Below, one piece after another: positions 1,165 through 31,237 of a stretch of 64,000 nt of DNA. Numbering within the stretch: the stretch's first letter is position 1; each line of letters opens with the position of its first letter. The stretch is taken from NCBI GenBank assembly GCA_046563655.1, contig CM102286.1:11532001-11596000 (forward strand). Direction: 5' to 3'. Below the pieces are notes generated by a model. It saw only the letters and a program-made list of their open reading frames with translations, had not been told where the DNA came from and did no database searches. Made by a program: the position numbers and the translations under genes. The stretch comes from Yuukianura sp. NJ FZ-2021 (Eukaryota).

Positions 1165-1331
1165 ATAAGGATATAAAGAGTACAAAGAAAAAATTCAAAA
1201 GCATCGAAATGTTGAAATCGGTTAATCGACTTTTTTATTAACTTAATGAAGTTAAGAAATATTTAATAGCAGAAGATTAACCTACCCAAAACTCCCTTTA
1301 AGTATGATCTAAAAACTTTGATTTTTTGCAG

Positions 1332-9000: not shown

Positions 9001-9102
9001 CTATTCTAGATACATCCGGTCTGATATGTATAAGGACTTCCTAAACGGTGCAAAAAAGAAGGTGCTGTTTCTGTCATTACCCGCAAAGTTTAGGAAACAA
9101 TA
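3014..9102 (+). CDS. RGS7: Regulator of G-protein signalling, R7 family (DEP-DHEX-GGL-RGS), multi-exon; start and last exon tentative
   Basis: Exons encode [109 protein letters not shown] and [14 protein letters not shown], all hallmark RGS6/7/EGL-10 motifs. Confidence 0.93.
4939..6130 (+). mobile_element. DINE-1/HINE-like element, family B, in an RGS7 intron
   Basis: Subterminal IR AAGTAGCGAAAG (4940-4951) / CTTTCGCTACTT (6092-6103). 5' hairpin AAGTAGC...GCTACTT, (GTCT/GTCC)n tract, internal ~0.3-kb tandem repeats, and a 3' stem-loop CGTTT-AC-AAACG followed by GTTTATT. Confidence 0.8.
6486..6800 (+). mobile_element. tRNA-derived SINE in an RGS7 intron
   Basis: Pol III A box TGGCTCAGTGG (6495-6505) and B box GGTTCGCACCC (6540-6550). 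A GC-rich non-tRNA body follows and ends in a short TAC-repeat tail. Confidence 0.7.
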
Positions 9103-10929
9103 AGGAGACACTCTGCGAGGATGCGGAAGCGGAAAAACATAAGAATCTCATCTACTCCTACTGTAATTGTTGTGGTGACTACTGGGCGGTATTTCCGTAT
9201 AATGCGAATGGTAATAGCTCCTTCTGCATTAAATTTTCAGTTGAATCATTACCATGTATTTCTATTTGTATTCAGTATTTGTATTTGTAACCTTATTTCT
9301 ATTCAGTTTTGCTTGTTGAAATACCTAAAACATTCTCATTACCGCAAACTATGTAATCTAACATGGTAGGTGAAATCGTTAAGTCAAGTATTTAGTTACC
9401 CTTTGTGCAAATGGTTGTTATTTCAACAAAAAATTTGGCGACTTTTCTGAGTTCGATACATAACATTCATCTACTACATATTGCAGCATTGTGGAAGAGT
9501 CATCGTGGCCACTCAAGGGAGGAAAGTGAGAGTTAACTCTCGCTTTGAATTCAAGGTTATCCAGCACAGGAGTTAACCCTCACTGCACGAACACCAAAAC
9601 ACGGGTTGAAGTAACCCGGATACGGGCTCATTGTACTCAAGTTTTGTTTTTTCTCCTATTTGTTTCAAAGACTGCGATATACTACGATTATTCTGTCAAA
9701 CTGGTACATTCGCCACACTCTAGACTAACTGCGTTGCCGATAGGCAACGTAATCTTATACTATGATCGGTAACGCGTTAACGCCCTAGATACATCATGTC
9801 GAGCTTATCCGCCATCTGACGTCAATGCTCTGCAAGTTATGCTGTTTCGAAATTTCCATTTGGCCAAATTGCGATAGATTAGTACGCTATTTTCCGACAC
9901 GGAACACTATTTCAAAAAGGAATTTCCAAGGAGTTTCCTCAGGAATGAATTTTTATCAGTGACCCGCTTATTTGAGTCCAACAAAGTAGGAGAAATTTTA
10001 ATTTGCGCAGTACGGGGAAAGGATGCTGCGGCCATCTTGTTATTAAAAACGCCCATTTTTTTTTTCTTTAGCGGAAAACCAACAAAACCACATAGCGAAC
10101 TCGTTGATAACGCCTGTTACTGGCGGGTTGAAAATTGTTTTGAACTGTGCTTCGTACGGAAAATAGCTGTCGCAATTTGGCTTATTTCGCATTAGGTAAA
10201 AGATGAAGCAGTAAGCTTTGGCATAAGTGTATAACACCCCTGTCTGTTCCTGTGGTGATTAAATTAAGCGATCACAATGCTCCTACCAATTGTATGTTCA
10301 ATTTCACGAATAAATAAAGGCAGTTTTACGTAGTTGAACGTTGATTTTATAAATTCCCTCCAAGAATGCTGTTTCTTTCACTCAAGTCAGCGTATGAGGG
10401 ATAGTGCTACGGTGCAATGACAGCACAATACAATTCATTGGAAAGTGAAATATTACACAAAAACCAAAAGTCTAATTAAGTTATTAAGCGGTAACCTAGG
10501 CGGCCGTAGGCGCCGCCAACGACAGGCTAGTATTTTATAATTTATTCGTTCTCCCAGAAACGCAACCTTCCTTTCCTTCTGTTGATTCCGTTCGAGTACT
10601 ATTCTGTGGTGTCTAGTCTTATGTGTGCTTCTATATAGCATAATAGCGGAAGGAGGATGTCTAGCTGATTGGCACAAAGTTATTCACTTTCTTTTACTTT
10701 GGATAAGAATAATAACAATATAACAAACTGGTGGAAATGCATCCAAGGAATAAAAATTTCAGTATGTGGTATAGAGGTAGAAAATGTCAGTATAAAACCT
10801 TACATTCCTGCCAGCATCTTCTTTTTCGTAATACTTCTCATTCGGTAATAAGCAATGACAGGAAAGGTAATCAACTTGCCACATCAGCCTTGCTCTTGCA
10901 ATTTGATGTTCTACACTTTGCACAGCCTT

Positions 10930-13900
10930 TTACGACTCCTGAATAGACGTGAAGTTCCCGTTGCTGCTGGCCAACGTAATTTTTGACTGCTGTTCCGGTA
11001 ACTTGTTCTTTGGCTTCGACGAGTTGTCACCGCGCCGGGAACCAAACTATAATGGAAATTGACATTAATTTTCAAATGAGAATTCAATCTTAGGAAATAA
11101 TTCTACTGCTTAGCATTCGTTATGGATATTCTTATGTGAACAAATCAGACGTTAGCACAATGAACTTTGGTACTAAAAGCAAGCAACGGTGGTGCAAGAG
11201 CAACATGACCGATTTGAGCTTGCTTTTGCGCTACTCTCTTGATCATGAGCAGCACTTATATGGAAAAGTTGCCAAAACATGTTATCGTGGATTGGATGCA
11301 ATTTTTTTTAGCATGTAGTAACAGTAGTACTCACCCCCCACAAACTAAGTGATGACATGTTGGAACGAAGTGGTGTCGTTGTAGCGGTCTCCGAAGTTGT
11401 CGAAGTGTCCGTATTCTGATAGGACTTACTAAATGCGAATGGGCTGAGCATCTGCGACACTGTCCTTTTAAGTTTGCCAGGAGTACGAGACAGGCTTAAT
11501 GCACGAGAAACCTGTTATTTGATTGTACAAGAATATTTTGAATTAATGAGTTAATTGATTAAAAAATATGTTCTTGTTTTTTGCGAACTTTGTGCCTGGT
11601 GCTGTTGGCAAACTTGGATGCCTTTTCTAAGACTGTGGAAGACAAAGATGAGAATTCCAATCGAGAGTATTCTTCGGTTACAAGTTTAATTTCCTGAAAA
11701 AAAACAGAACTGCAATGTAAACTTCAATAACAAACATTTGAAATTATAGCATACATAGTCTAAACGATCCACAGCATCTGCAGCTAATTTGGCGAGGCGA
11801 TGCAACAATATCATTTTCGGCCAATTTGGATCGTCAGGCAGTGTAAAACCAAACACACGTTCCCGGTTCTCGTGAGGTTCTCTTACAATCAATGCGAAAC
11901 ATGGTGCATCTCTGTAAACAATATGAAAAAATATGTATTTGACGTCCCCCGAACCAGTAGTGAACTAAAAAACTGAAATATTTGAACAAAGGGTAAAGGA
12001 TATAGAAATTGATGTAGTAATTATAATTACCGAATATCCACCACGCGGACAATGGCGACATGATATATCATTTCTACAAATTTATAAGGCTTCTGTGAAT
12101 TTTGCTGGCTGCGGACAGGCTGTTGCCGTGCTGTAGTCGACTTTCTAGACATGCTAGGGCTGCGCATGTTGACAGTCGAAATGACGGAGTTTAGATGCTT
12201 GTTGTGGACGGCATTGGCCCTCCTCTTCACAATCAAGATCGAATCATTGAAAACAATCAAACTCAGCGGCTCATTCTTTTGCCCCCATGTTTCAGTAATT
12301 GAATTCACGTCAATCCTAAGTTGCATCGAGCGCTGAGCTGAGACAATATCAACCTGTAAACAAAACAAACAATGCTCAAACTCTTTCGTTCGTTCAACTT
12401 TACAGTTGAGATGAACAATTTAAGAGACCTACCGGGCATCCATCAATGTCATTGTAGATATCAAACATGGCTATCCTGGCCTCGGTGACTCGCTTCCCTT
12501 CATTGATTGCTTTGTTTACTGACGTAATTCCCTCCACTGCTTTTACCATCCACTCAGCATCAGGATTTGGGTCTTTTGTTCGCTTTACAAGTGCGGAGAG
12601 AATAAGAGCTGTTGAAGGAAGCCGCTGAATGGGTCTGATCAATAGCTCGGTCAGTGACTGCTTACCAGATTCGGGACGACCTATGCTCAAACACAATACA
12701 ACAAAAGTATTGGAAATATACTATATTATATTTATTTACTATATTGTATTACTTTGTGCAATTTTAAGAAACGCCATAAACCGGGCGTCTTTCTCTTCAC
12801 ATCGCTTAATTTCGTCCTGCGTCGCTTCAAAAAAATTCACGAAGGGTTCATACGCCCTTCGAAATGAATTTACCTGAAGAGACATAAATTACAATTTACG
12901 CTTTAGTTAACACTCAGATATTGACATTGGAAACTGAATAAATTTCGTACATGATCGCAGTACACTTTCCCAATCAGATTATCCTCCGACCACGGCATCA
13001 GTAAGCGTGATAAATCTCTCAGTAATCTTCTATGTAGTGAGTAAATTGGCAGGATCGTATGGAAGATAGTCTTGATTTCTAGCGGCCCTAAAATAGCGCC
13101 GCCGGGTTGGGTTGTGTCTTCACATGGCTCTTTGAAATTCTATAAACAATATAAACAATAATTTCAACGATATGATTTTAGAACAGTTTTTGTCTTCCAG
13201 CAATAAAGAATAGGAAACTTGAGGCGCGTAACGACAACATTGTACAATAAGTTTGTCTCAAAAGGCTGACAAATTATTGATTTACGAGGTTAATTGGTTA
13301 ATGCCTAAACAAATAGGTTTTCGATCGCAGAAATTTAATTTTAGCATAAATGATTTCTGCAAGGTGTTGACTGTTGTGACAAATTACTTACCTTAACAAT
13401 GTTAACCAAGATGGCAACGTAGTTTCGTTCCGTTTCAATGAGATGAGCAAATTCAGCTTGTCGAGGAGACATTTGTTTGAAATCAGCCGTCAACAGGAAG
13501 TCGTTGATCTGTTTTAAGGTATTACCAAATACTACGTCTGATACATCTTCGTCGGCTCCTAACGAGTTACCGCCCAAATCTACGACGGTGGCGTCAGATT
13601 GCGTTATGTCTGTGATGATCTTTGGAGGGAGGTCGGGCAGGACAAGAGAACTCACGTTGGCTTCGCTCCTGAAAACCACACAGAAATATGCTACTCAAAA
13701 AATCATGTTGTTTGCTTAGATGACAACCGCGGTCGGTAAGAGTTCTTGACCGAAACCATGAATTAAACAAGACGTCGTCGTGTTTGCTTTACTTCATGAA
13801 CTTACTTGCGGGATTCCTTTGGTCTCTTTCGTTTCCATCTGCCAAGCCTATCAGATGTGCTCCCAGGCGTATCCCATGTTCCTCCTGGATCATTGCCTGG

Positions 13901-16472
13901 AGTGAAAGTGGTTGGACTGATCAAATCAGTAGGAGTACCGATACTTGCATCAACGGCTTCGTCGTATTGTTTCAAACAAGTCTCAGAAGTAGTGATAGGA
14001 ATGAGATAAGGCTCTTCGCGACTACAATAGCCGACTTGCAGGGTAGTCCAAAACCATTCTTCTTTGACCACTTTTACTTTTTCACGGTGGAACTGAATCG
14101 GCGTACTCACTGAAGCCGGAGTAAGAGTAGCTTGATTCCCGGGAACCTAAAATCGAAAATTCACAAATTAGGTGATGCTTTTTGGAAACTGAAGTTTAGA
14201 GAGGTTTAAAGTTGCTCACAGGAAATTCCACACGAGGTCGCTTAGGATTGTTCTGCATGTCTGTCGGTACTTCAGGTTGTGACGATTCGACTTGATCTTG
14301 GTGAAAATTTTCTCGCATATCATCCCGCAGCTTAACCCAATTCGATTCTGTGTGGACCACCTGAAACAAAAAAAAATTAACGTAAAAAAAAGACGCGCTA
14401 CTTTCCTAGGAACCACACTGTAAATGTTAGACTTTTTCGCACGTCGAGTACCGACAGGAAGAAATTTGCGATACACGTTAAGAAACAAGCGTGGCTTGCA
14501 GAATTTTGTTTTATTGCCTAAATACAACTACTAGGGGGGGGAAATCCAAGTGTGATCTCGTTGTCCCGCATACATCGGCACTTTTCGCACATCTCCGCTC
14601 ACCCATTCCCAAAATATTTTTTAAACGCAAAACCTTAATTTAAAAAGCTTATTAGTTATTATTTATTTACTTATGTCAAACTGATGTAAGAATATTGTAA
14701 AGCAAAATGGCGCTCGCTGCACAGCTACGCTCCTATTATTAACAAGAATATATTAACAAGAGGTCAAAATTTGGGAAAAAAATTCAAAATTTCACACTTT
14801 TAAAATTTTGAAAAAAAATCGCAATTTTGAAAAAAGTTCGAAATTTTGAAAAAAGTTCGTAATTTTGAAAACAGAAAACAATTTGGACAACCTAGGGAAG
14901 GAAAGCCGCTTTATTGAAAAACGTCGAATTTTATTTTTGCGGAGCTTTTTTTCTGCTTGCCACCATAATTCCTCATTTCCAGCCTGCCACTTTTAGCTTG
15001 AGGGACAATAGCAGTACCCATTTTGCTTTTCAATGTCACTAAATCAAGCTAATGAAGGTGCTTAATTTAAATTTCAAATGAAATATGTTCAAAAATACTT
15101 ACAATAATTAATTAATTGATATACAAAAATGAACTAATGAGAAAACCTAGAGGTTCCGGATGATGGTTATAGCTTAATTTTTACTTGAGCGGAAAGGCGT
15201 AAAAAGTGCCGACATGAGCCAAACACCTGATATTTTCACGGGACAACGAGATCACACTTGGATTTCCCCCCCTAGTAGCCAAGCCATTCATTGACCTTAA
15301 CGAGATTGCGCAGAGATTTGACTGGTGTGTTAAAACTTACAATATGGGTTGCTTGGGGGTCATCAGGTTCAACAACAGCACCATCCCTGGATATTACATG
15401 TGTAGTCAATTTGGATTTTAAGTCGTCGTCAAATCCTTCAAACCCAATTTTCAGTGAATAAAATGCTTTGCATGTCCAGGATTCCTGCGAGAAAGAAACA
15501 TTATGTCGTAAATACTTTTTCTTCAAAGAGAGTCAGCCTTATATGTATAACTTTGGAAAAAAAAACGTGCGAAATTGGAAAAGACCAAGACCAATCGAAG
15601 AGAAAAGCATGCCGTACCTAAAAGCATAATAATAAAGTCTTTACCATGTCAGATTCCCAATCCAACTGTGGGCAGTCACGTCGATTCCATAGATGATTTA
15701 TCCAATTAGGGTTCATAACTGGGACAGCAATTGCGCAAGCATCACGATATCTTTCTCCGCCGACTTTCTCAACAACCAAAAAGTCCACTTTTACTGCCTT
15801 CTCGAGAAATTGTCCTCCGAGATAAAGAATTTTCCGTCGCATCTCCACCTAAACAGTCAGACAAACGTTTAGCATGCTAGTACTAAAGATGAAAAGAAAC
15901 TGAACAATTGAAAATCGAACATAAGACAAAGGTATATGTACAATAATAAGAATCTTACCATCTTTTCCTTTGAGCGCATCCCAGTTATACTAAATGTTTT
16001 ATTCCCAAAACAAGTCGAATAAACCGGGTAACCAGAATCAGAGGGAAACTGTTCACATCCTCCCGTACGAAATGAAGCCAAAACAGCAGGCACTCCCAAG
16101 ATTACGACTTTAGGGTTATGTTGTGCACGTTTTCGGAGATGTTCGAAAATCGGTCCGTCGAATTCTTTGAAAATATAAATTGAGGGAATATCTGAATCAA
16201 ATGCAAATGCGCTTTCGTCAGTCTGAATGGGTTGTATTGAGCGTTCCTGCAATATCAATCAATATCAATTAGGATAGGTTAATGAAATGTCAGAATCAAT
16301 CCCCCCCCCCCCCAACACATATACAACAATACAGAATAATAATAATAAATTCATCAAACAAACCCCGAAGGGTTCAAGGAATTTCAACAGCACTTGCCTT
16401 TAGTATATTTTGAAGTTCAGTATGTTCCAAAAGGCAGTTGCCCACAAGATGTACAACTTTCTGGTCCTCCAT
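10930..16472 (-). CDS. ECT2: RhoGEF ECT2/pebble (BRCT-DH-PH), multi-exon; first intron GC-AG
   Basis: BRCT segments (IYIFKEFDGPIFEHL...PVYSTCF...ITGMRSKE; VMNPNWINHLW; VVKEEWFWTTLQ), DH motifs (HLIETERNYVAIL; GKQSLTELLIRPIQRLPS; INEGKRVTE) and a VSRALSL..TP C-terminal region. Confidence 0.92.
14534..15272. mobile_element. MITE in an ECT2 intron
   Basis: ~35-bp TIR G7-8AAATCCAAGTGTGATCTCGTTGTCCCG at both ends, flanked by TA (or CTAG). Internal ~20-bp tandem repeats at 14765-14870; no ORF. Confidence 0.85.
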
Positions 16473-17229
16473 TAGTGACAAAAGGCACTTTGTTAACGAC
16501 AACACGGGTATTGGTTAGCTTCGTCCTCCCTACGTTATCACAAATTCCGATTCACAATGTTCCAAACAAACAAGATATTCAAGAAACTAAAACCGTATTA
16601 CAATTATGTGAACGATTTGTCTTCGAGGTTAATCTAAACTCAAAAAAGCAGCCAAAGGCGACAGAGATTTAGGTACAAATTAACAAATAAAAACCTCCAA
16701 AACAACCGTCCGACTATTCCTCATAAACAACACACGTTGTGACTTCCTAATCCTCTGAATCCTGTTAGCGATTTTTGAATCCTTTTGGTTTTTAATTTGA
16801 TGATAAAAAGTTACAGCAGACTTACGATTAGTTAGTGAATCAGTGTTCGTATCTTTACTATAACCGATTAGGTTCATCAAAGTTCATTTCAGTTTCGTAA
16901 AAAAAAATTAAAAACCGAATCGGAACACCTTCGGCAAACTCGCGAAGCATGTAAAATTAAGATAAAAATCTCAATTAACTCGTCAGTTTTTTACGATGAT
17001 TCTGCAATTGGTTCTAACCGCTCTCGTCGCTTTATATTTATTTTGTTGATTTACAAAAAAAAAATCGCGTTTCAGACTTTCGGAGTTCCCGTACGGTTAG
17101 CGCTGTACAGGTTGAACTAAAACTCAGAATCCGAATTTACTTTCGTCAATTCACCAACTGTTCCCGGCCCGCCAATTTTTTCAGCCGAACTAATTGCCCA
17201 ATCCTCTATCACCTACGAAACCACTGCTA

Positions 17230-17510
17230 CAGTGTAGTCATTTGTTAACAAGAAAAATCAGGTCTGACTATTTCCTTAACCCGTTTTTTTCTCTAAAACC
17301 TAACAATGGGCAGTGGAATAGTCAGCCACAATTTTTCTTATATTAGCTACTAATGACTATACGGTAATAAGGATCATTTGCTAACAAGAAAAACTGGGGT
17401 CTGACTATTCCACTGACACGTGTTTTTTCTTCCTTTGGCTCAATGAGAAAAAAAACGTGTCAGTGAAATAATCAGACCCAAGTTTTTCTTGTTATTAAAT
17501 GACCCTACGG
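17230..17510. mobile_element. Two adjacent related ~135-bp palindromic MITEs (Tc1/pogo-like ends)
   Basis: Copy 1 (17230-17364) reads TA|CAGTGTAGTCATT...AATGACTATACGG|TA. Copy 2 (~17368-17510) has the same internal IR and ends ...AATGACCCTACGG|TA. Confidence 0.65.
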
Positions 17511-17938
17511 TAGCTTTAGCTTAGCTTGTGTTAGCTAAACTACCGATTTATTGGTATTTTCCAGAAATTTTATTCTTCAAGCCTATGCCGCGGACTGCCT
17601 CAGAGGGAACCCTCATTTCTGACGTTTATGAAATTAAGATTTACTAAATAATTTTTAGAATAGAATTCAAAAGTATTTAGTCAAAAAGTAATATAATATG
17701 TACAGAACCCTCAAGCCTCGATCCATTCATCGAGAAAGAAAAAACGCCTAACTTTTTTTCTTCGTATTCGCCCTAAGTTTACCTTTGTATTACTATTATT
17801 ACATTCTATTACCAGGCCTACCTACCTATGGAGGAATATTAGTGGCAAAACTAAGTAAACTTTCCCCCGCCAATTAAATTTTCCCCAATTAAAAAATTTA
17901 ACTTTCGCCAATTTAGTAATTGGCAAAAACTTAATTGA

Positions 17939-17960
17939 TTAGGTTAGGTTAGGTTAGGTT
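17939..17960 (+). repeat. (TTAGG)4 tract just inside the left TIR
   Basis: ttaggttaggttaggttaggtt seen directly. Confidence 0.8.
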
Positions 17961-18213
17961 AAACTAAATTTCCAATTATTTCTAATTAATACTTATTACA
18001 TTTACTTTTTCATTAACTTGTACTACATTAGTTTTTGAATTTAATATTGCCCATGTATGAAGTGGGCACTGTGAGTTGCTGAATGACCTTTTGATTTACC
18101 GTTTTGTTTGAAGTCTTCCTATTTCTTATGTGGTTGTTTGATGTTAAGGCGTGAGAAGTTTAAAGTTTCAAAGTTGTTAGTTTATTTAAAAAAAGCTTAC
18201 AAACCTAAACAAG

Positions 18214-18663
18214 ATGCAGGAACCGACAAATTGTTGGAAGTGCGGGTTAAGAGGTCACATGAGGTCAAACTGCACAACAACTGTTTCGCCTTGGAGATGG
18301 GCTGAAAACCGAAGGATGGCGAAGGGTGGGTACGAATCGTTTAGGCCTCGAGAGAGAATTCTGGTGCCAGTATCCGCGAAGGAATTCCGAGTAAGTTAAT
18401 AAATACGGTATTTGATTTAACAACAGTTTTTGATTAAGTGCGGCACCGCAATTAATCCATGTGTATATTTCTAAATGTAACAGATTATCATACTGGAAAA
18501 TTTTCTCAACTATGCTGTGGACAAATACAGGACCTTTCTGCAAGTCGTTCAATTCATCGACCAGAATAAGGCTACAGCTGAAGACTCGGAGGAGTACTAC
18601 CAACGTCAGAAGTTGGCCAACGTCAGAATAAGAGCAGAACGGAATCGAAGCAGCATTAGTTGA
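18214..18663 (+). CDS. Small spliced CCHC zinc-knuckle protein (cargo); exons ~18214-18390 and 18484-18663
   Basis: CWKCGLRGHMRSNC = CX2CX4HX4C. GTAAGT donor at 18391 and CAG acceptor at 18483 give an in-frame second exon IIILENFLNYAVDKY... Confidence 0.5.
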
Positions 18664-19539
18664 ATTTTCAAAAATGGTGACGACATTTAAAGCCGGTTTA
18701 ATTAACCTTTCATTTTGCTAAAACCTATTAACTTTGCAGAGATTGCTAGGAAACTTCATATCCATGGCCGAGAAGGACAATTTTAAAAATCTCATTGAAG
18801 ATGCTGTTGAAGTCAGGTGCCTGGTATATAGAAAGTCATATCAATTTGTTTGGATGCGCTTGACGCTGCTGCAAACAATTTTTGGATTCCGGTTTCACAT
18901 CAACGGTAAGCGCAGTGTTTAATGATTTTGTAAAGGGCCCCCTAGTTTTCAACTTCGCTTTGGAGTTTTACCAAAGTCATTAGGTCGCTAACCATGTCAG
19001 CGACACTGGCTATGTCATTTTCATCGAGAATCCTTTATTAAATTAGGGAGCCCTTTTTTGTACAGTTGATCTGCTTCAGAACTCACACGTCATTCTTCTT
19101 TATTTTTAATATGTAAAACTTAGCACTTAAAAATATCTTTGTGATAATAATAAATATGAGAAATAACAAGTGTTTGAAACAATATTTAAATAATAGTTAA
19201 AATAAATCTGACAAAATGTTGCCTAGGAGCGGATGCGGGGGCGCTTATGCGCGAATACTTTTGGATGGCATTCACAGCTTTGGGAAACGGAAAGTAACGG
19301 AAACGGAAAGTAAAGAAAAGTTGGAACTTTTTCGCGTGTATGTGGCTGAAAAGTGCAGCGGGACGGTACACCACCACACCCACCCCACTGGACAACAAGT
19401 GTACTGGTGATAGGTTAAGCAATGCTTGTCAGTCTTCATTCAGTCTCTGAATAAACACCTTCAAGGTGATCTCTCTGGACAAACAGTCCTTCATACAGTT
19501 TCGTATTCGTTTATTCATCGATTAGTGTGTCAGCACAGT

Positions 19540-19758
19540 CTCCTGGGTCATAGGTCAAGAGGGCAATCTCCGGTCTGCCGCAAAAGACGTGTCTGGGATA
19601 AATCTCCCCAAAAAACATGTTCAACATGGACGAAGTTCAGTGTCAATTTGATTTGCCTGGCACCAGAACCATCGCCGAAACGGGTCAAAAGGATGTCACA
19701 TTGGTTACCAATGGCTCTGAGAAAAAAAAGTTTCATGGTAATCTTGGCCGTAGGTGGT
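19540..19758 (+). pseudogene. pogo/Tigger DDE_1 transposase remnant, N-terminal part (frameshifted)
   Basis: MFNMDEVQCQFDLPGTRTIAETGQKDVTLVTNGSEKK, then SFMVILAVG in the next frame. Matches the pogo NMDE...FD.P..RT....G...V....TG.EK..FTV.L motif. Confidence 0.7.
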
Positions 19759-21019
19759 GTAGGAGAGAATGTAACAGTGGAGAAAGCTGTCAATCAATTT
19801 TAAAGTATTGATTGGCAACTCTCTCACTGGAACACAGGAGAAGGGAATGAATTAGTTCATTCCTTTTTCGCGTGTTTCACAATCAAGAGGGAGACGACCC
19901 CAGGGTGCTTCGTTAGCACTCTTATCAGTGGGATTGGCAGAAAAGGTTACGACTTTCTGGCTATCAAGCTGTAAAAGTCAGGTCATGAGTGATCTGACGT
20001 GACTCAAAACTTTACTTAGAAACCAAGTAAATGCAAATTTTAAGACAAAGTTTATGTTTAATTATGTAAAATCTTTTCTTAGAATAAGACAAGATTAGAA
20101 ACACTTAGTTTTAGCTGACATATGTAACTTTGTGGTTACTAATTCTAATCACTGGACATGTTTATGAGTTAAGTTCATTAGGATCATGTAATTGCATGTT
20201 AGTGATTAGTTATCTTTAGGTATAAATAGAGGATCGGGAGGCCGACCTCTTGGTCAGTTGTCCAGTAGCTTGCTAAGCTCTTAAGTAAATAGTAGTAGGC
20301 ACTTGGCCAATCTTGGCCCTTTCACTTTCAAATCTCAGAATTAAAAACAGTCACTTCATTCGCATCTACTCTCAACTTTCACTTTCTTTCAACTTCTAAC
20401 GTCTGACGAGCATCTTTCTTCCGAGCCACCACCAACCGGAGCCCACAGGTCAACCGAGAGGTCAAGAGGTCAACCCAGCGGACATCTGAATCAGAGGCAG
20501 CGCCAAGGCAAGGCCAGACCTCAGGTATGTTCAAAACATATTACACCTAAGTAAGTACTCAGGTCCTCCTGCTGGGCTCTGCCCACAAATGATCAAAACG
20601 CTTTCATTTCTCTCTAACGACTTTCACCAACCAATCCAAGAACTAAAAGAAACCCCGGAAGCTGGTGCTAGACCAGCAAGGTAGATTCAAGTCCAAAAGT
20701 GGAAAGTGAGAATTAGTTTTTATTATCAAGGTCATTATTATTATTATTATTACCTAATTCTGATAGAGTCTAAATGATACAGATCTAGAAGATATAGAGA
20801 GATCCTGTTCAGTTTAGGTGATTTCTATTTAGATGAATTTGGGGGAGGTTTCAAATGCATTAGCATCCAGTGCTACAGACAGCAGTTTGCTGATCCTGAC
20901 CTTCCTTAATTAAAGGAAGGCAAAGCACTAAATTGGTGGCGTAGGTCTAATAGTATCAGAAAAGAAAACTGATAATGTAAATATATGTTTTAAAATTATT
21001 TGATCACAAGTCAAATAAC

Positions 21020-21990
21020 GTTCAAAATTTTGACCCAGACGAGGTCAAATTCAAAATTTATGAAAAACAAAGGAGGGGAGGGCACGTAATGTGATTAACA
21101 TTGTCTCGACCCCACATGACCCCAAACAAAAACAAAATTATTACGTTGACCCCTTAAAGGTCACGTAAGGTCAAATAAATAAAAATTTATTTTTACAAAA
21201 ACTTGTTGACCTTGAAAAGGTCAAATTAACAATTGAATTTATTTGACCCCTGTGAGGTCACATATGAAAAAATTTTGAAAAATCACTTTGACCTTGAAAA
21301 GGTCAAATCGCAAAAATTGACGAAATTTTGACCCAAAATAGGTCAAACTCAAAATTTATGTCAAACTAAGGAGGAGAGGGTAGCCAATGCTTTCAGCATT
21401 GTGTTGACCCCGATTGACCTCCATACAAGATTCGAGTTGGTAAAAACTCAAAACACAAAACAACAACGGACTTTTAAAAATCAAGTTTAATTCAAATTCT
21501 GAGGTGAAATTCAAATCACCTGTAAATAAGCAAATGACCTAAAACTCCAAACTCCATTTGAGGACTCAAAATGCAGGGTCCAAAATAATATGGAGGAACA
21601 TAAAGGCATTGCTAATTTAACTGACTAAACCCAGACAATTTATTAAAAATTATACAACTGGTATTAAATTACCTCTGAAATTTGTCAATAACAATTGAAT
21701 TAAGCCCATTTTCACAAATACACGTCAAAAACAAAATTATTAAATTTGACCTCTGAGATTTGCTGAAAATTGCGGGAAAATTCAAAAGTTAATTGCAAAT
21801 TCAAGTAATAATTGCCAATAAAAATTACCTCTGAGTTTTGCCAAAAGCTGAGGAAAATGAACCTCAGTTACGCAATTCCAAGTAATGTAACTAAAAATAA
21901 AAATTACCTCTGAGACTTTTAAATTTGAGATAACGTTGCCTCAAATGTAAAGTACACGTAATTTATCAAAATTATTATCACATTGCATCT
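21020..21990. repeat. Degenerate direct/tandem repeats (~100-bp pair at ~21025 and ~21325; ~78-bp period AATTACCTCTGAG units at 21665-21990)
   Basis: Repeated TTTTGACCC..AGGTCAAA.TCAAAATTTATG...AAGGAGG.GAGGG and AATTACCTCTGA motifs. Confidence 0.6.
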
Positions 21991-22348
21991 GACTGTTTAA
22001 ATCAAAACCAAAATCATGATTCGATGATGCGCCGCCATAGAATTTGCTCAAAAGGTGAGGAAAACCTCAACCGAGCAAGTTCAAACTCAAAAAACAGTCG
22101 GCAAAAAGCCAAAATTGAACTGTAGAGTAACTTGGTGTGTGTCATTGTCTTTTTGCAAAAAATAAACTTGTTTTAAACAAAAAGTTGCAAAACTGCGCGA
22201 AATCGGCTAAGTCCGCCGATTCGTCTCACCCCACAGTGTTTACTGAGGTAAACAAAAAGAATAAGCAAATTTCCAGCAGAGAATCCAAGTCTACTGCTGT
22301 TAGTCAAATTAGTGACAAGTCCACTTCAAATAAACATTCTGTAATGTA

Positions 22349-24388
22349 CAGAGTGATTTTAAAGATCCAGACATAAAAACCCACTCCAAAACCTCTTTTC
22401 ATCTCCACCTCTCCAGTCAACTCCCCTTCATCCCGCGCAAACTCGTTCCCTCCGAAAGTTTATTTCGGTTAAGAAATTAGCGCGGCAAGAAAGCCAACCG
22501 ATGCTTTTTCTTTGATTATTACTTAATAAGTCACAGCAATTGGTTTACTCTCTCATTGTTCAAGTTAAATATAAAGTTAAAGTTAAATATTGTTAAATTA
22601 GTAATTCCCTAAAGTTAAAGAGTCATCCGGAGTTGAACGGACGCACAGCACTTCATGTAAGGTAAGTGATCAGTTATTATTGTGAAAATCTTTTCATTCA
22701 GTGATTTAGGGAAGTGTCATGAGGGGACTTCTGTTGTCGAAAACTGAAATCGTTGTTTTAATGCTTGACATTTTTTGCTTTTTAGTTGAACCATGACTGT
22801 CCGTTACTCAGAAGCTCAACGCCTTTTCATCATAAATCTGCGACTTGAACATAAAGATGACAATAGTACACAGCTTATGCTAAAGTACAATTCGGATCCA
22901 ATCTCTCATAACCGACCCATGCTCCATCCAAAAGATGTCAACATCATTCTAAAGAGATTCTCGGAACTGGGGAACACAAAGGATCGTCCAAAATCGGGTA
23001 GACCAAAGACAGCAACTGACGAAAATTCGGCGACTGGAATTCTTGGTGCTTTTGCGGCGGATCCGCACATTAGCACACGACAGATTGCCCGGGATATGGG
23101 GGTTTCTCAGACGTCGGTGCTAAAGGTCAAAAATGAAAACGGTTGGAAATCATACAAAGGAAGGGTACAGCAAGTTCTGAAACCTCCTGACGGCCCAGAA
23201 GGGGCGTGGTTTGCTCGTATTTGGCTTCCAGTTTTAAATGGAATTCCTGAGTACGCAAAAAATATTGTGTTTACGGATGAAGCAGTGATAAAGTTGGACG
23301 GAACTGTAAACCGACAAAATTACCGATATTGTTCAGATACGAACCCTCACTGGAATCTGCCAGGTATGATTTAAAAACTTATGAACGACTTTGACAGAGA
23401 GTTGTGGTTTGCCTCAAATTCCCCCTCATGCCGCATTCTGGATTTTTTAAAATATGGTGGGGTATTAGTGACTAGAATTTTTTTCCTCAAAATTTTTTTT
23501 CTTTTCTGTTTTTAGTCAAAACGCAATCAGCAGCAAAAGTAAATATCTGGGTCGGGCTATTTGGAGATGAAGTTATCGGCCCATTTTACTTCAATGGAAA
23601 TATGACCGGCCAAATCTACCTCAACATGCTACAGGGTCAAATTGTTCCCGCGATTCTACAATCCGCAACTAGACAGCAAATCCCGCACGCGGATATTATT
23701 TATCAACACGACGGGGCTGGACCTCACTTCGCACGGATCGTAAGAAATTTTCTTGACCAAGTGTTTCCCAATCGTTGGGTGGGACGGGGTGGACCTTATC
23801 ATTGGCCGGCGCGGAGTCCTGATTTTTCGCCACTTGATTACTTCGCCTTTGGCCACATGAGGTCCCGTATTTTCCTGACACCAAGACCTGTCACTGCGCA
23901 AGACCTAATGGCACGAATCGATGATTTCTTTCGTAACGATGTCACTCCAGAAATATTGAGAAATGTAAGAGAAGGATTTCGTACGCGGTTACAAATGTGC
24001 CTCCAAAACCATGGAATGCATTTTGAGCACTTAGATGATGGTCTAACTACCCCTCCATAATATTTTTTTGCCACATTTTGTTGACATGAAGATGTTGAGT
24101 CACTAATCATACTTCTGATTACTAATCACTAATTAATTATAAATGTTTCAAATTATTCTATTTTAAGCTAATAAATTCAAGCTTATGTCACTTTTCAACT
24201 CTAATTAATAGTTAGTGTTCAAAATTTTGATTTTTAAGTGTTTTGGTACAACACGAAGTGGCGCATTATTAGGATGTAGAAAACTTTCCGAACGGAGGAG
24301 GGATCCGCAGGGGGAGTTGATTGGGGAGGTGGAGATGAAAAGAGGTTTTGGAGGGGGTTTTTATGTCTGGATCTTTAAAATCACTCTG
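22349..24388 (+). mobile_element. Tc1/mariner DD41D (rosa/VS-type) transposon, 2040 bp
   Basis: ~78-bp TIRs CAGAGTGATTTTAAAGATCCAGACATAAAAACCC..., with TA duplicated at 22347-48 and 24389-90. Confidence 0.93.
22793..24060 (+). CDS. DD41D transposase, 371 aa, two coding exons (22793-23363, 23516-24060)
   Basis: HTH with GRPK, FTDEA, VNIWVG..IGPFYF, YQHDGAGPH and WPARSPDFSPLD. There are 41 residues between the 2nd and 3rd Asp. A 152-bp GT-AG intron joins the two ORFs in frame. Confidence 0.9.
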
Positions 24389-24803
24389 TATTACATAATC
24401 TCTCAGATGCAAACCAACTCGTTTGATCTGACATACTTAACCAAGGGACGCATTCTCATGCAACCTTACGTAATGGTGTCAAGAAATAGGGTCGGTCACA
24501 CCCAACCATTGTTAGGTTAAGCAACATTGCATAATCATGCAAGTTCCTCCTTCTCTCCCTTTCACTTTCGTTAGTATAAAAAGACCAATGTAAAACCATC
24601 TCAACATCACAATCCATTTAACAACTGAATAAACTTGAACCACATACACAACACATTCAAATCACGGTTCCAGCTACAGGTCATTGCCTGGACATTCTGG
24701 ACATTCAAGGTCACATAGACACAGTGCTCATGCAAAAACACAAAGTGACAATGCAAGTGCAGTGACAGTGACATTGACCTCACGGCTATAAAAGAGCCTA
24801 AGG

Positions 24804-25473
24804 ATGACGAAGCAGTTGTCACTCCAGTTTCATCTTCGTCGTCTGAGGAAGAAGATTCATCTTTTCCTGCTCCAGCACAGTCAAAGGTCAACGACTCTGT
24901 TCCACCGAGAAGAACTGGACGATCTAGAAAACCCCCGGACAGATATGGAGATTGGACATACTACTGCGGACTCAGAGACTGAGGATATTCACCTTCGTCA
25001 AATTGATGAAGAGGTCACCCGTAAGTGCTCCGTTGACCTCCACAGGTCAATGAGTCATTCCCCAATCTCCACCTTCAACTTCTATTTTACTATGTACATT
25101 TCATTTCTAATATATTTTTCTTTTATTTTTTACAGGTCAGATGAGGGAACTCCAGATGTCTCAATCTGCCCGATCTCTAGCCATCTCCACTTCATCAACA
25201 ACTTCCGGATCCCCTACGATGCCATTTCTACTGGACATTTCACACGCCGAGGAAAACACAAACCGTTGCGACTGGTGTTGCAGGCGTGGTCACAACGCGA
25301 AAAGTTGCATCTTCCGTGCCCTTGACCTCCGTGCTACTTCCAAAGTCACCCACTCCGGAATACCTCCGCGACATTGCCCAAAACCCTGTTTCATCTGCAG
25401 TCAAATCGGCCACAAACAGAAGTCCTGTCCACAACGCCCCGTATTTAGAAACTCAGGAGATTTTCCCAACTAG
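24804..25473 (+). CDS. Spliced double CCHC zinc-knuckle protein (exons 24804-25020, 25136-25473; start uncertain)
   Basis: CDWCCRRGHNAKSC and CFICSQIGHKQKSC. GTAAGT donor at 25021 and polypyrimidine-TACAG acceptor at 25135 join in frame (T-R-Q-M). Confidence 0.6.
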
Positions 25474-26004
25474 TAGCATTACCTACCATATACCAAATAA
25501 AAGTTAGGGGATTTGGCAACGCGTACGGGCACTTTTAATTCATTAGATATGGAAAGTGTTTTTACGTTTTAGTTATTTTAAAAATAATTAGGAGTGAATT
25601 AAAATATTTTGAAATATAACAAAAAAACAAGCACATTTTAATTTGATTTATGGCGTTTTTACTTTTTCAAAAAAGTTGTTTGCAATTAGTTTTAATTGCA
25701 ATTAAAGTAGCGCAATTTCACTTTTTCTCAGTGGGTGGGCCAGGAGTCGAGTTGGGGTTTTTTGTTTAACCAGATTCAGGGTTGGTGAGCGTCCCGAATC
25801 ATTCCATATGCTGACCCGGTTGTTGCATGTGAGGGTACTTCCCGGCACATGAGATATTGGTACTTATGAGTCATATGTACTACCAACACCCGGGTACCCA
25901 CATACCCGGCTACCGGGCATTAGGGTATTCATGAATTATTGCAATTTTCATACCAACGTTTTCAGCAAGAGCTTTTATCATGTCGCAAGGCGTTCCCTGT
26001 GCCC

Positions 26005-26301
26005 TGGTACCCACCCGCCCGGCGGGCGGGTAGTAGGGTAGTGTCGTTTTCTCTTTGTTTTTGTTGCCAAACTCCACAAAAAACGTTTATTTCACCTACA
26101 GCAACGATTTTTAAGACCGGGTATCCCCACACCCGGTGGGCGGGTAGCAGGGTAGTGTCGTTTTCTCTTTGTTTTTGTTGACAAACTCCACAAAAAACGT
26201 TTATTTCACCTACAGCAACGATTTTTAAGACCGGGTATCCCCACACCCAGTGGGAGGGTAGCAGGGTAGTGTCGTTTTCTCTTTGTTTTTGTTGCCAAAC
26301 T
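26005..26301. repeat. 114-bp tandem repeat, ~2.6 copies
   Basis: GTGTCGTTTTCTCTTTGTTTTTGTTG recurs at 26041, 26155 and 26269, with near-identical sequence in between. Confidence 0.9.
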
Positions 26302-26319
26302 TGTTTAGTGGAGAACAAG

Positions 26320-26989
26320 TTGCACCAGTTGTACCTGAAAGCGAAAAACCAGAGAGTTGAAAACAAAATAAAAAGATTTGATGCAATTCAGCAACCCAAC
26401 GTGCCGTACATCGGAAGGGATAGTGATTTCTTCTACAGTGTCTTATTCAAGCACAAAGAGGTGTATGCTCTAATGCTGCATCCAGAAGCAAAGCCTTCCG
26501 TTGCTTTTACGTATACGTACGATGCGTTTCGTAAATTGGATGGTTTCAAGGTTTATGTGGATTGCGAGTTTGACCATGTTGGGTGCGAAGGCCTGCTGTA
26601 CTCTTCGAAGATTAAGTACTTCGTAATGGCAAAGGAGGTGTGGCTGTAAGAACCGAACTTAACAACTGAGGAAAGTAAGTACAAAAAAGTACGAATTGTA
26701 AATGCTACTGGAAATAAGTTGCGTTTCATTTGTGTACAGCTTACTTAGATAAAGTGCTAACGGCAAGGGAGGAAGTAAGAGAAATTTCTCGAAATGTGAC
26801 GAATATGGTATGCCAAGTTTTCAACAAGCCAAATTTAAATTGTCTAGTGATGGGATGTTAGTTCATATACTGTTCTAGCTAACTGAAGCGGTGAAAGTAA
26901 AAGATGAGCTGAAGCGCGTTGTAACAGCGTATTTGCAAAGAAAAATCAAGACACCGAAGCAAACGGAGACTTGGCTGGTGAAGAAATAG
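26320..26989 (+). pseudogene. Orphan spliced gene fragment with an internal stop (cargo)
   Basis: ORF to 26649 continues past TAA to a GTAAGT donor. Two further short exons follow in phase (YLDKVLTAREEVREISRNVTNM / LTEAVKVKDELKRVVTAYLQRKIK). No family recognised. Confidence 0.4.
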
Positions 26990-28007
26990 GCATGACCCAA
27001 CTAACAGCCAAGTTGTTTAACGAATTCCAATACAAATTATAGAAGTTGTTTTGATTAGAAAATAGACTTACGTGATTGTATTAACTAATACCTCAGAAAC
27101 AATTTAAATTCAATTTTTACTAAAATTGATATTATGTCATTCGAAGTAACAATTGCACTCTAATTTTTATTCACACAAACGACCATAATATAATAAAAGT
27201 TAAAAAGAAATGGTCGAAAAACCGAAAACTGAAAAAAAATTTTTTTTTATTCCTAAATTAGAAAAAAAAATAATTTATTTTACATAATTTTATTAAAAAT
27301 TTTTTATAATTTTTTTTATATTTTTAATGATTTTTGCAATCCATTAACACAATAATAACCTTTAATCACAAATATGCATGTTTGCCCATATGCGATGCGG
27401 GTGGACCCCGGATTGTTCACCTAATTCTAGAAGGGTTATTCATAATTAATGACGGTAGGGAAATGTAATGAAATTAACAACAACAAAAATTATGTTAATC
27501 ATTTGTTCTTTGTAGTCGTTTGTTTTCTGCAAATTAGTTCATTTTTGCACAAGTCATCCTAAAAATAGACGTTCGACTCTAGGTTTAGTCTTTTGTTGTA
27601 ACTCATTGTTTGTCTAGATTTACATCTAGTTAACTCGGCGCGTGTCGAGTCCCTATAAAAAGGGCTCGGCCGTGACCTCTCAATTCACTACAACTCCAAC
27701 TTTCAAACATAACGGAACTCTGTTCGTTCTGCGAACGAACCAGAGTTCATTCAACCCAAAAACTTTATTTCTGAATAAAAGTTATTTCTTTCTCCAAATA
27801 GCGAGCAACTTAGAAATAGCCTTCATTCCAGAACAACTAGATAGAGGCCATCGACCCTTCCTAGATAGTCATGGCGTTTTAGGAAGAGAAACGATCAAGA
27901 ATTAATTTACAAATAAGATAGAGATTGATTTGGCGGAGGTAGATGTTTCTTTGTTTGTTTTTTTTTGTTTATTTGTTTGGGTTAGAGTCGATGCGATGAG
28001 GGTTTAC

Positions 28008-28145
28008 GAGGGTTTCAAGAAATTGGTTCAAATGATCATTTTTAAACGGAAGACAATTCCGAAAGAAAATTTTCCATCGGGTGTTCTCGTACGTGCCAAT
28101 GAGAAAGGATGGATAAATGGAGATTTGATGGAAGATTGGAGGAAC
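28008..28145 (+). pseudogene. pogo/Tigger DDE_1 transposase remnant, continuation
   Basis: EGFKKLVQMIIFKRKTIPKENFPSGVLVRANEKGWINGDLMEDW matches pogo DG.KLPP.IIFKRKT.PK..FP.GV.V..N.KGWM. Confidence 0.75.
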
Positions 28146-28159
28146 AACTTTTTCAACAA

Positions 28160-28686
28160 TGAGGAACTTTTTTTTTTCAAAATTATCCGAAATTTCTTAG
28201 ATAAGACGCGTCTTGTAGTCAAGGAAATACGGTATATGGATTCAATTCCTATTATTGAAGGAGAAATTGATCATAAAATACCGAATTCTGATGCGGTGCT
28301 GCTGCGGAACAACGTTTTCAACCTGGTTGGAAAGTTTATGATACATGCCTGCATTCACAGCGGCATTGCATTCGTCGGTCTCAGCAAGGTCGTCTCAGAC
28401 TACGTGTTGGCGAGCTCCCCTGGTGTAGATTCAGGATTTGAAATAACTATTCAAGACGTCGCAGATCCGGACGTGAGGGATGCTTTATTGAAAGTAAGTT
28501 GGGTGCCCAAATTATTTTTCACGCCTAGACCTAGAAGCTATATAAACGCATTATTATTTGGATGAGTAGGTTGAGGCTTGGGACGAATCGAACTCTCCTG
28601 CAGATCGAGATTTGGCTCCAATCGAAACTATTCCTACTCAAGCTGAAATAAGCATGAAGATAACTTATGAAAATCGGCTTTGTTAA
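28160..28686 (+). pseudogene. HECT-domain (G2E3-like) E3 ligase fragment with retained intron
   Basis: IIEGEIDHKIP...FNLVGKFMIHACIHSGIAFVGLS...ITIQDVADPDVRDAL resembles the HECT N-lobe (F...G..I..S..HGG......LS; I.DV.D). GTAAGT donor at ~28494, then a short further exon. No catalytic C-lobe. Confidence 0.6.
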
Positions 28687-28694
28687 CATTTGCC

Positions 28695-29008
28695 AAAGAA
28701 ACTTACCGCCGTTTAAAGTTTTCCCGATTAACGTTTCGCCGTTTAAAGTTTCCCGATTAACTTTTCGCGGCTTAAATTTTCCCCTATTAACTTTTCGCCG
28801 TTTAAACTTTCCCCGATCAACTTTTCGCCGTGTAAAATCCCCCCAATTAACTTTTCCCCGTGTAAAGTTCCCCTAATTAACTTCTCCCCGTTTAAAGTTC
28901 CCCCAATTAACTTTTCTCCGTCTAAAGTTTGCCCGATTAACTTTTTCCCGTTTAAAGTTCCCCCAATTAACTTTTCCCCATTTTAACTTTCCCAGATTAA
29001 CTTTCCGC
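28695..29008. repeat. Subterminal tandem array, ~30-bp unit (2x15 bp), ~10 copies
   Basis: ATTAACTTTTCCCCGTTTAAAGTTCCCC-like units, related to motifs inside the TIR. Confidence 0.9.
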
Positions 29009-29202
29009 CAATTAAGTTTTCGCCAATTATTAAATTGGCGAAAGTTAAATTTTTTAATTGGGGAAAATTTAACTGGCGGGGGAAAGTTTAATTAGTTTTG
29101 CTACTAATATCCCTCCATACCTACCTGGTATAGTATTATTTCTTTCCTTATTCATGTTTCCTTATTGTATCTAGCTAAGAGTTGGAATACGTAGTCAAAC
29201 GT

Positions 29203-31237
29203 CTACTTTGACTTGTCCGAAATTGTGTATTTGGAGTACGTCTTGTTTGGGTCGTAAGGTTCCCACCTGGATGCGGGGAATATGTGCTTGTTCCTCTCAT
29301 ACCTGGTAAGAAAAAGAATTATGTATCTGGTAAGTTAAGTCAATTGTGAAAAAGTATTTACCAGTTCCGGATTAAGACCTTTCCGGCATGTGAGTCTTCT
29401 TTTTCACGACTGGCGTCGCTTTGTAGCCTGATGTCGTCGTTCGCAGTGAAAGCAAATAGAGGTCCGCTTTTCCCCCGAGCTTTTGTTACAATTAAATCGT
29501 AAAAGGAATAATGATGCGGCAAAATCAAATCCTCCTTCACGTACCTGTAATCAATAAAAGCATAGTAAAATAAAATTGCAAAAAAAATGTAATTACGCGT
29601 AACAAACTACTATTTTCCCTTCAACGTTTTTTGAATTAAGATGAAACCTTGGTTCCCCTCACATATGTAAGTAAAACTGTACCTTTTTATACTTTGATTG
29701 TCACATGATGCGAAGATGTGATTCACGCTCACATCTAGTATTTAGTTGGGTATATTTCAGTTTACGGGAGAGTTCACGCGTAAAAAAGAATAGCGTTTTT
29801 GCGTTTTACCGCAGTATGTTCAATTGGAGCGGAGATATGAAGGAAAATAGAAGCTAAGCGTCACGAAAGCTGGATTATGCGATTACAGAAAACGAACAAT
29901 TGTGAAGGGAAACGAATAATTTGTAACATAACGAATATGTGATATCTAACCTTAATGCAAGTTTAAATATTTCACTCCTACTGATTCATTTTTAGTGTTT
30001 CCAATAAGACACTTACATTAATTGGTCCGCCGTGACGCTTCTGAGTTCCCCAAATTCATCTCTCAAAGATTCCAGGCAGCGTTGCAGAAACTGGTAGATT
30101 GTTGTGCCTGTAAAGAACCAGAATATAACTTACTATTTAGTGAGTTTAGGTAATGACATTAAGTTTACCTTTCGACACTGTAATCACCCTACGATGTCCG
30201 GATCCATCCCAATAGCTGAATGTGACATCTATTTCCTCATTCTTCAAGGCCTCTTGTGCTGCTACCCATTCCTACTCCGGGAAAGCAACACAGCAAAAAT
30301 CAAATCATAAAAAACAAAGCCATCTTTACGTCAGCCGGTGCAAAGTCGCGCTACTTTAAGTACATTCCAGTTTATCGTTTCTCATAACATTTTTGTTGAG
30401 TTTTTGGGGTAACACCGCCCATTTGTATTGCGACTGATTTTAACCGAAATCTCACCTGCCTAAGGATTTCTCTTAGATGATTTTCTTCTTCCTCGCGCTT
30501 TCTATCCGGAAGGAAACTAGTATCCACGTCGGGGTTCTTTTTCCCGATTCGAGGTTTTTTTAACGGACAAGGTTTCGAAGCAGCCGCATCAGAATCAGAA
30601 GCGTCAACTTTCTCATCATCGTCTGCTTCAGATTCAGAGCCTGCGTCGTCCTCGTCCTCATCCCCTTCGTCTGCGGCAAATGACAGCGCTCGTATCTGCT
30701 TCATCTGTAGTTCCTTTTCAGCCCTTTTGGCGTGCAGTTCTTCTTGCTTCTTCTGCTCTTTCTTTGCTTTTCTTTGAGCTATTTTTATTTCTCGTGCCTT
30801 TATAACGGTATCTTGTTTTGCCTTCATTTCATCCAACGTTACTAGACCAATAGTGGAACTCTGGAAAGTAAAACAAGAAATGGTAATTACTTTAGTTAAA
30901 CAGTGAATCACTTTGCATGGGCTTGAATTCAAAAAGAAAAAAGTTAGAGTGACAATTCCTGTTCTATTTCGTTAGTAAATTAAATACAACAGAAGAGAGT
31001 TAATGTTTCTAGGAACAATCTCGGCAAATCATACCCAAATATATGAATAACGTTTACCTTCAGCTGAGCTTCAATGGCGTCATAGTGAACAGCAAATTTG
31101 TTTTCCATTTTATCAACTTTGAGTTCCTCCTCAATTTTTCTACGACGAACTTCGAGGTCGTGCGCTTCCTTTTCTCGCTTCTTCATTAATTGCTGAGCCC
31201 TCGAACCCTCACTCGCAGCTCCCTTGTATTGAGCCAT
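29203..31237 (-). CDS. FAM50A: FAM50/XAP5 homolog (6 exons)
   Basis: [83 protein letters not shown] and [18 protein letters not shown]. Confidence 0.95.

Follow-up and report, generated by a model that had tools for sequence, protein, structure and literature searches.

An 11-kb sequence between terminal inverted repeats in Yuukianura sp.: a repeated non-autonomous family, a nested interior and one HECT-like exon

Is an 11-kb sequence held between two terminal inverted repeats (TIRs) a carrier that shuffles pieces of host genes, or a small non-autonomous transposon that has filled up with other elements? The question is raised by positions 17827-29119 of a 64,000-nt stretch of DNA from Yuukianura sp. 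NJ FZ-2021 (assembly GCA_046563655.1, contig CM102286.1, positions 11,532,001 to 11,596,000 of the forward strand), the whole of which was analysed and is here called the window. A first-pass annotation, made from the letters alone, had described the sequence as a Pack-MULE-like cargo element that carries shuffled, intron-containing gene pieces. The explanation that we favour, at slightly better than an even chance, is that it represents an old, fixed copy of a non-autonomous family of the foldback or miniature inverted-repeat transposable element (MITE) type, and that its interior is a stack of nested events as opposed to many captured gene pieces. Because that interior consists mostly of nested transposons plus one stray exon, the 11-kb stretch would then be genomic debris of an ordinary sort and no novel vehicle for the shuffling of genes.

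The case begins at the ends. Two inverted arms (17827-17937 and 29009-29119) of 111 nt each, identical at 105 of 111 positions, enclose an interior of 11,071 nt, in good agreement with the TIRs of about 110 bp reported earlier. With up to 3 mismatches allowed, the terminal 27-mer is found at exactly 2 sites in the window, against 0 expected from shuffles, and identical copies of ACCTACCT adjoin the left and the right end. The two ends comprise:

17820..17827, no strand: left flanking repeat ACCTACCT, within GGCCTACCTACCT; can be read as a target duplication of 8 bp or as one half of a (CCTA)n tract interrupted at TA
17827..17937, plus strand: left TIR; 30-nt unique terminus ((T)ATGGAGG...), three 15-bp units, centre palindrome GCCAATT-TAGT-AATTGGC, then the beginning of inverted units
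17939..17962, plus strand: (TTAGG)4.5 tract, at the point where arm homology stops
28700..29029, plus strand: subterminal array of 30 bp x 11, built of 15-bp sub-units; a single position carries as many as 11 contigs in one of the runs
29009..29119, minus strand: right TIR; its centre palindrome gives a local hairpin (z = -5.7)
29119..29126, no strand: right flanking repeat ACCTACCT

Both arms share one build, in which the 30-nt unique terminus is followed by three 15-bp units and the centre palindrome, after which oppositely oriented units start. These inner units of the right arm run on as the 330-bp array, which therefore has the orientation of the left-arm units. The array, whose presence had been correctly noted, stands at the right end only; the left arm has none and passes after 17937 into (TTAGG)4.5, the sole such tract in the window. 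The hairpin is likewise significant at the right end and not at the left (z = -0.88). The 15-bp repeats that follow the termini are probably binding sites for a transposase. We also considered ACCAGG / CCTGGT in the flanks as an outward extension of the inverted repeat and judged it a chance match, other copies diverging just past 29119.

A search for an inner copy of either terminus returned none (scores of 20 and 24, where the shuffles reached at most 26 and 22, the alignments consisting of repeat units only). Since neither terminus has an inner copy, two complete small MITEs are excluded, and the first-pass suggestion that the arms might be separate MITEs, each with a target duplication of its own, is contradicted by the lack of both inner terminus and inner flanking repeat. 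In each arm there is nonetheless a centre palindrome, beyond which the opposite half begins, and this makes the arms two MITE equivalents without an inner terminus, the left one truncated precisely at the (TTAGG)n tract. TTAGG is the telomere repeat of arthropod type, and its presence at the left breakpoint may be the scar of a repaired break.

We compared the region 16000-30500 with the contigs of four public sequencing runs (the left junction is contained in five runs from two studies, none of them recorded as RNA). Run X1 derives from organism A, while X2, X3 and X5 come from one sample of organism B; all evidence from them is in the form of contigs, and what follows concerns the contig rows and joints listed (15 of the 49 joints). 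Contigs of X1 cross both junctions (17401-17909; 29090 to past 30500), as do those of X5 (17509-17906; 29040-30500), which are several percent different from the window, and a contig of X2 crosses the left junction (17546-17901). The empty site, proposed earlier as something to look for in other individuals, did not turn up, there being no joint from 17827 to 29119-29127 among those listed for the four runs. The right arm and the array lie, at single positions, under up to 7 different X1 contigs and 11 X2 contigs, and the summed word depth of the array bin in X2 is 20,221 versus 158-268 in the flanks, a figure that is not a copy number. In addition, one X5 contig links 17893 to 29031 with 20 nt between, and this joint is the short hairpin MITE form of the family, composed of only the two arms. 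The insertion is thus a single old one of a repeated non-autonomous TIR family, filled in both organisms as well as in the several-percent-diverged contig set, and the earlier description of one non-autonomous TIR-bounded element holds.

Within the 64-kb window neither further TIR copies (blastn-short, nhmmer) nor any second occurrence of the interior pieces of the element could be found, and a 25-mer TIR pattern had 0 matches in metagenomes. Contigs of X1 leave ~22776-24227 (the nested mariner-like element described below) uncovered, and those of X5 leave ~25680-26647; these gaps carry no evidential weight.

To which superfamily might such ends belong? A Pfam scan (E <= 0.01) of 43 open reading frames (ORFs) of at least 60 amino acids (aa) and 103 of 35-59 aa, 146 in total, revealed no Mutator, hAT or P transposase. 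Its yield was limited to sub-threshold zf-CCHC matches (two ORFs), helix-turn-helix families (one), DDE_1 (one) and a few weak unrelated matches. The first-pass statement that no Mutator transposase was recognised inside is therefore borne out, and the Mutator (Pack-MULE) affinity itself finds no backing, there being no Mutator domain in the 146 ORFs and a duplication of at most 8 bp.

The junctions read ...GGCCTACCTACC-TA-TGGAGG...CCTCCA-TA-CCTACCTGG..., so that TA adjoins TGGAGG...CCTCCA at both ends of this copy. Three readings of the duplication suit the copy equally: 8 bp (ACCTACCT), which leaves ATGGAGG as the termini, 6 bp (CCTACC), which leaves TATGGAGG, or a 2-bp TA inside a (CCTA)n tract. 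TA fits as well as 8 bp because the 4-bp period of (CCTA)n yields the longer repeat automatically. The longest direct repeat adjoining the ends is 8 bp, and a target duplication of 9-11 bp is absent there. Hence, of the 8-9-bp duplication claimed earlier, the identical 8-bp flanks are real, whereas their status as an 8-9-bp target duplication is not secured, TA in (CCTA)n fitting too. Seven X1 contigs share the sequence through ...CCTCCATA, to the A at 29119, and are then mutually unlike, which favours a TA duplication or termini that include TA. A target duplication of TA, as in Tc1/mariner elements, is accordingly more likely than one of 8 bp.

What lies between the arms bears most directly on the question of shuffling. 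Two sets of split pieces frame the interior:

19220..19294, plus strand: HECT-like exon, piece A (GADAGALMREYFW...GNGK); AG acceptor at 19225-19226; profile positions 234-258, E 1.4e-5
19602..19748, plus strand: pogo transposase fragment, piece 1; corresponds to residues 159-207, at the start of DDE_1, in a pogo-like transposase of 434 aa
19765..27994, no strand: composite sequence of ~8.2-8.3 kb that splits the pogo ORF
28017..28139, plus strand: pogo transposase fragment, piece 2; corresponds to residues 213-253 in the 434-aa transposase named for piece 1
28221..28511, plus strand: HECT-like exon, piece B, which is G2E3-like and holds the beginning of the HECT domain; E 2.5e-37 at profile positions 255-358

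On the plus strand the order is HECT-A, pogo-1, ~8.3 kb, pogo-2, HECT-B, from which it follows that the interior is nested and colinear, and not shuffled as had been proposed: the HECT exon contains the pogo fragment, this contains the ~8.3 kb, and this in turn the mariner-like element. The contents listed earlier for the interior are on the other hand there: zinc-knuckle ORFs, HECT fragment, pogo fragments and a nested transposon, which is of the Tc1/mariner type.

In the search for longer proteins the ORF at 27990-28562 retrieved only two pogo-like transposases, each with DDE_1 and HTH_Tnp_Tc5, and tblastn detected no other parts of the 434-aa pogo protein in the window. In contigs of organism B that represent other genomic copies the pogo points are joined directly (19726 to 28018, 19626 to 28108 and 19668 to 28174), and in one of these joints the missing codons are made up by 38 nt. 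Where the two inner inserts begin and end we found neither TIRs nor target duplications, nor any inverted or direct repeat above shuffles. Several interior positions (e.g. 19639, 20238 and 25126) lie under 3-7 different contigs per run, so these parts are repeated in the genome; several contigs per run cover most of the interior, which is thus made of repeats as opposed to pieces of host genes.

The share of the interior identifiable as gene-derived, i.e. not from a transposable element (TE), is ~344 nt of 11 kb, namely the HECT exon, which to judge by its sequence looks like the only captured host DNA in the interior. The exon of piece B ends at 28496 and is followed by the donor GTAAGT. A HMMER search of the whole library with 28140-28496 returned 120 proteins at E <= 0.001, mostly fragments of 80-300 aa; 119 of them entered the HECT profile, one bacterial SprB-repeat protein being left out. 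Sixteen of the 120 (the three best and 13 of at least 316 aa) were scanned with Pfam, and one of the 13 long matches, P0038, was dismissed as spurious. Pfam HECT was present in 8 of the 16 (6 of the 8 above the curated cut-off), and wherever the Pfam hit spans the match, the match to our fragment coincides with the beginning of the HECT domain or shortly precedes it. One of the homologues bears the name G2/M phase-specific E3 ubiquitin-protein ligase-like in its source. When 10 HECT-like proteins were used as tblastn queries, all 10 matched 28182-28517, and 5 also matched 19226-19291 with the residues immediately upstream. Pfam HECT gave no match on the fragment itself, whose identity comes from its longer homologues and a weak Atlas lead, and a PDB sequence search with the fragment produced a chance-level match only. 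A further upstream HECT exon at 18722-18915 was rejected, as the profile gave it no support.

Because both splice sites (the AG acceptor and the GTAAGT donor) have been kept, the HECT piece entered as DNA and not as complementary DNA, and in the five closest homologous fragment proteins read (P0004-P0008) a V stands at the donor position, as read-through of the GT predicts. The proposal that sequence was acquired at the DNA level with introns retained is thus upheld for the HECT exon, while the rest is mostly repeated TE sequence. We also observed a perfect 16-bp tandem duplication (GGAAACGGAAAGTAAC x 1.9) at 19283-19313; it falls exactly on the break in the exon, at the 3' edge of piece A.

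The other features of the interior are the following:

18017..18364, no strand: 348-bp segment with most of zinc-knuckle ORF 1; replaced by TTAA in X2, X3 and X5 contigs
18190..18399, plus strand: zinc-knuckle ORF 1; ATG at 18214; CCHC knuckle CWKCGLRGHMRSNC at 18232-18273; zf-CCHC 19.4 bits, below the cut-off of 20.8
~22336..24399, plus strand: Tc1/mariner-like element; TIRs of 80-91 nt; TA on both sides (22347-8, 24389-90); HTH_32 match
24804..25473, plus strand: zinc-knuckle ORF 2; putative exons 24804-25019 and 25141-25473; CCHC knuckles at 25267-25308 and 25387-25428
26018..26301, no strand: 114-bp tandem repeat, 2.5 copies
26299..26649, plus strand: orphan ORF without a start codon

The mariner-like element has an open, predicted two-exon transposase (~22793-23364 and 23516-24057) with the motifs FTDE / QHDGAGPH / SPDFSPLD and 36 residues between the last two acidic residues, and its second exon aligns to the Mos1 catalytic domain (E 0.0097). 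In both X2 and X5 a single contig of 2,032 nt is ~99% identical to it. The element looks intact and, on these sequence features, may have been recently active. The contig depth of its terminal ~180 bp is much above that of the remainder, as would be expected if the genome held derived MITEs or tandem arrangements at other places. Contigs of X2 and X3 also join 25673 back to 24218 with TT between.

The long form of the 348-bp segment is present in X2 together with the form in which TTAA replaces it; the segment is therefore an indel between alleles or copies, and the interior is still changing. Three canonical CCHC knuckles exist in the six frames of the window, two in zinc-knuckle ORF 2 and one in ORF 1, and neither ORF attains the Pfam cut-off for zf-CCHC. 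Exon 2 of zinc-knuckle ORF 2 had no homologue among proteins of 60-193 aa. An alternative frame over its putative first exon (24749-24982) is acidic and serine-rich, ends in RRTGRSRKPPDRYGDW and has only a weak DUF1674 match in Pfam; this ending resembles the linker between integrase and reverse transcriptase in retrotransposons of the copia type, and RKPPDRYGDW (24930-24960) is a candidate copia-like motif. For the orphan ORF, a search of proteins of 63-203 aa brought up no homologue, Pfam yielded nothing at E <= 5, and the Atlas leads were of 0.89 at most. Finally, an AT-rich block at 20840-21900 with many short GGTCAAA/TTTGACC hairpin motifs and direct repeats (21025-21129 versus 21323-21428, 77%) is unclassified repeat sequence.

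Taken together, the ends, the repeated family, the two filled junctions and the nested colinear order form the observed part of the explanation that we favour. The course of events might have been as follows. A foldback/MITE-type non-autonomous element would have inserted once, by means of a transposase supplied in trans by a separate partner, as an element without a transposase of its own would need. Its small core would have carried one G2E3-like HECT exon with intron borders, into which a pogo-derived fragment entered; this fragment would in turn have received ~8.3 kb of repeat-rich DNA, with the still-open mariner-like element within. The interior would thus have grown stepwise, by insertions and by filler from break repair, and mostly either at the present site or within a TE-rich donor; the element would now be fixed. 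A share of break repair with filler DNA in this growth is suggested by two features, namely that the left arm is cut short at the telomere-like tract and that the inner borders bear no hallmarks.

Several points weigh against this account. Clean nested transposition lacks support for the layers whose inserts have neither TIRs nor target duplications, and in this one copy an interior that came in together with the element would look the same as one that grew in place. A HECT exon with its splice sites kept is also the expected load of a gene-capturing element. The TGGAGG... termini show no likeness to the TIRs of the nested mariner-like element, nor do they match the ends of a pogo contig (L001, 1,856 nt, from another organism), which has no long TIR and may itself lack termini; to our knowledge, they are also unlike the usual termini of Tc1/mariner elements. 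The TA reading leans on one row of loose ends from one run among the rows listed, beyond which copies that end at 29118 are possible, and summed contig depth provides no copy number.

The first alternative to be weighed is a Pack-TIR or Pack-MULE-like carrier that acquired genomic DNA between its ends, including at the minimum the HECT exon and the intron borders beside it, and moved here as a unit, the nesting having come later. It would account for the intact outer termini and flanking repeat, for a family that is repeated, and for a HECT piece that is genomic in its acceptor, its donor and the V of its homologous fragments; moreover, Pack-TIRs are known in animals, one of them the foldback-borne Ssk-FB4, according to PMC8277862. 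We nevertheless regard such a carrier as rather unlikely: the ~344 nt from a non-TE gene are themselves under several contigs per run, no Mutator affinity emerged from the 146 ORFs, and the interior of 11,071 nt exceeds the 100-5,000-bp range given for Pack-TIRs in the same paper.

A further alternative, which strikes us as improbable, is that of a composite (macro)transposon, in which two neighbouring palindromic MITEs lost their inner termini and moved together with the TE-rich DNA between them. Large segments flanked by foldback elements are a parallel from Drosophila. Such an origin agrees with arms that each contain a centre palindrome of their own and then enter the opposite half, i.e. 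two MITE equivalents as opposed to one split MITE, and with an interior that resembles contiguous, ordinary TE-rich DNA in which the nesting pre-existed; neither inner terminus is present, however, and a long family member with hairpin ends, or an internal duplication, explains the architecture equally. That two unrelated partial MITEs should face each other by chance across 11 kb of intergenic DNA, with the ACCTACCT match a product of low complexity as the first-pass annotation had cautioned, is very improbable, for although the target is a (CCTA)n-like tract and the arms differ inside (330-bp array on the right, truncation on the left), ACCTACCT occurs only 4 times on both strands of the window (128 kb; 1.2 expected) with two occurrences abutting the outer termini exactly, the only two outer termini that exist stand in opposite orientation, and the inner side of each arm has neither terminus nor flanking repeat.

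Under the explanation that we favour, the locus is an example of a small non-autonomous transposon growing into an 11-kb composite, with colinear split pieces that give the order of events, and the more attractive label over-reads it, since neither Mutator affinity nor many captured host genes have been shown. Gene capture by animal TIR elements as such is already documented in PMC8277862. The locus would matter more if the same ends carried varied gene cargo, or if the 11-kb unit stood at several sites. Although it is a long shot in our estimation, a foldback-type MITE family might mobilise cargo of more than 10 kb, this copy being a giant Pack-type or composite unit that moved the HECT exon together with CCHC genes and an open mariner-like element. 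The family would then be a vehicle that spreads G2E3-like HECT fragments, and would represent exon shuffling at a scale undescribed for animal Pack-TIRs.

The element is located in the intergenic space between ECT2 and HMGCR. Its surroundings (1-16700 and 30000-64000) are gene-dense animal DNA with Erg28, ECT2 (RhoGEF and PH, minus strand), an Ig/fn3 gene, HMG-CoA reductase (minus strand, 32.2-33.7 kb), an amiloride-sensitive channel and AdoHcy hydrolase. About 300 bp to the left of the element is a second, unrelated small palindromic repeat (arms of 61 nt, 17370-17430 / 17446-17506, 89%, loop of 15 nt), which is probably another MITE; contig depth is raised over 17200-17540, and the runs contain strand-switch joints there.

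How does this element compare with known systems? Animal Pack-TIRs number 370 cases in 100 genomes, apart from the foldback-borne Ssk-FB4, in Tan et al. (2021, Nat Commun 12:4280, PMC8277862), which defines them by two TIRs of one element, an interior of 100-5,000 bp, and a unique, non-TE-linked parental copy of at least 90% identity and 80-120% length. Our element likewise holds sequence between two TIRs of one non-autonomous element and has acquired at least one gene piece as DNA, and the gap-filling break repair that the same paper proposes as the origin of single-copy animal Pack-TIRs suits the truncated left arm. In contrast to them, its 11-kb interior, well above the size range, is composed mostly of nested transposons with one gene-derived exon.

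Drosophila Foldback elements and Ssk-FB4 share with it unequal arms, non-autonomy and the bracketing of foreign DNA, and in part also long ends of short tandem repeats (here 15/30-bp units in both arms, with the 330-bp array on the right only). FB4 has TIRs of ~700 bp and duplications of 9-10 bp (PMC8277862), whereas the arms here measure 111 nt and the duplication is 8 bp at most or TA. Also unlike Foldback, the 330-bp array is direct and not inverted relative to the left-arm units. Plant Pack-MULEs resemble the element in being TIR-bounded, in lacking a transposase and in carrying a gene fragment with intron borders. Their size is given as ~300 bp in that paper (PMC8277862). The element, on the other hand, shows neither a Mutator domain nor a 9-11-bp duplication, and its 11 kb are mostly TE debris.

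With Tc1/mariner MITEs that have a TA duplication it shares the TA on both sides, copies that run through TA and then diverge, and a short hairpin form. Stowaway-like MITEs are of this kind, being derived from Tc1/mariner elements with a TA duplication. Its TGGAGG... termini, however, differ from the TIRs of the nested mariner-like element, and this copy is far longer than a MITE. In nested transposon clusters, lastly, colinear split pieces record successive insertions into earlier insertions. The split pieces here are colinear in the same manner, but in this case the whole stack lies inside one TIR element, with inner borders that bear no target duplications.

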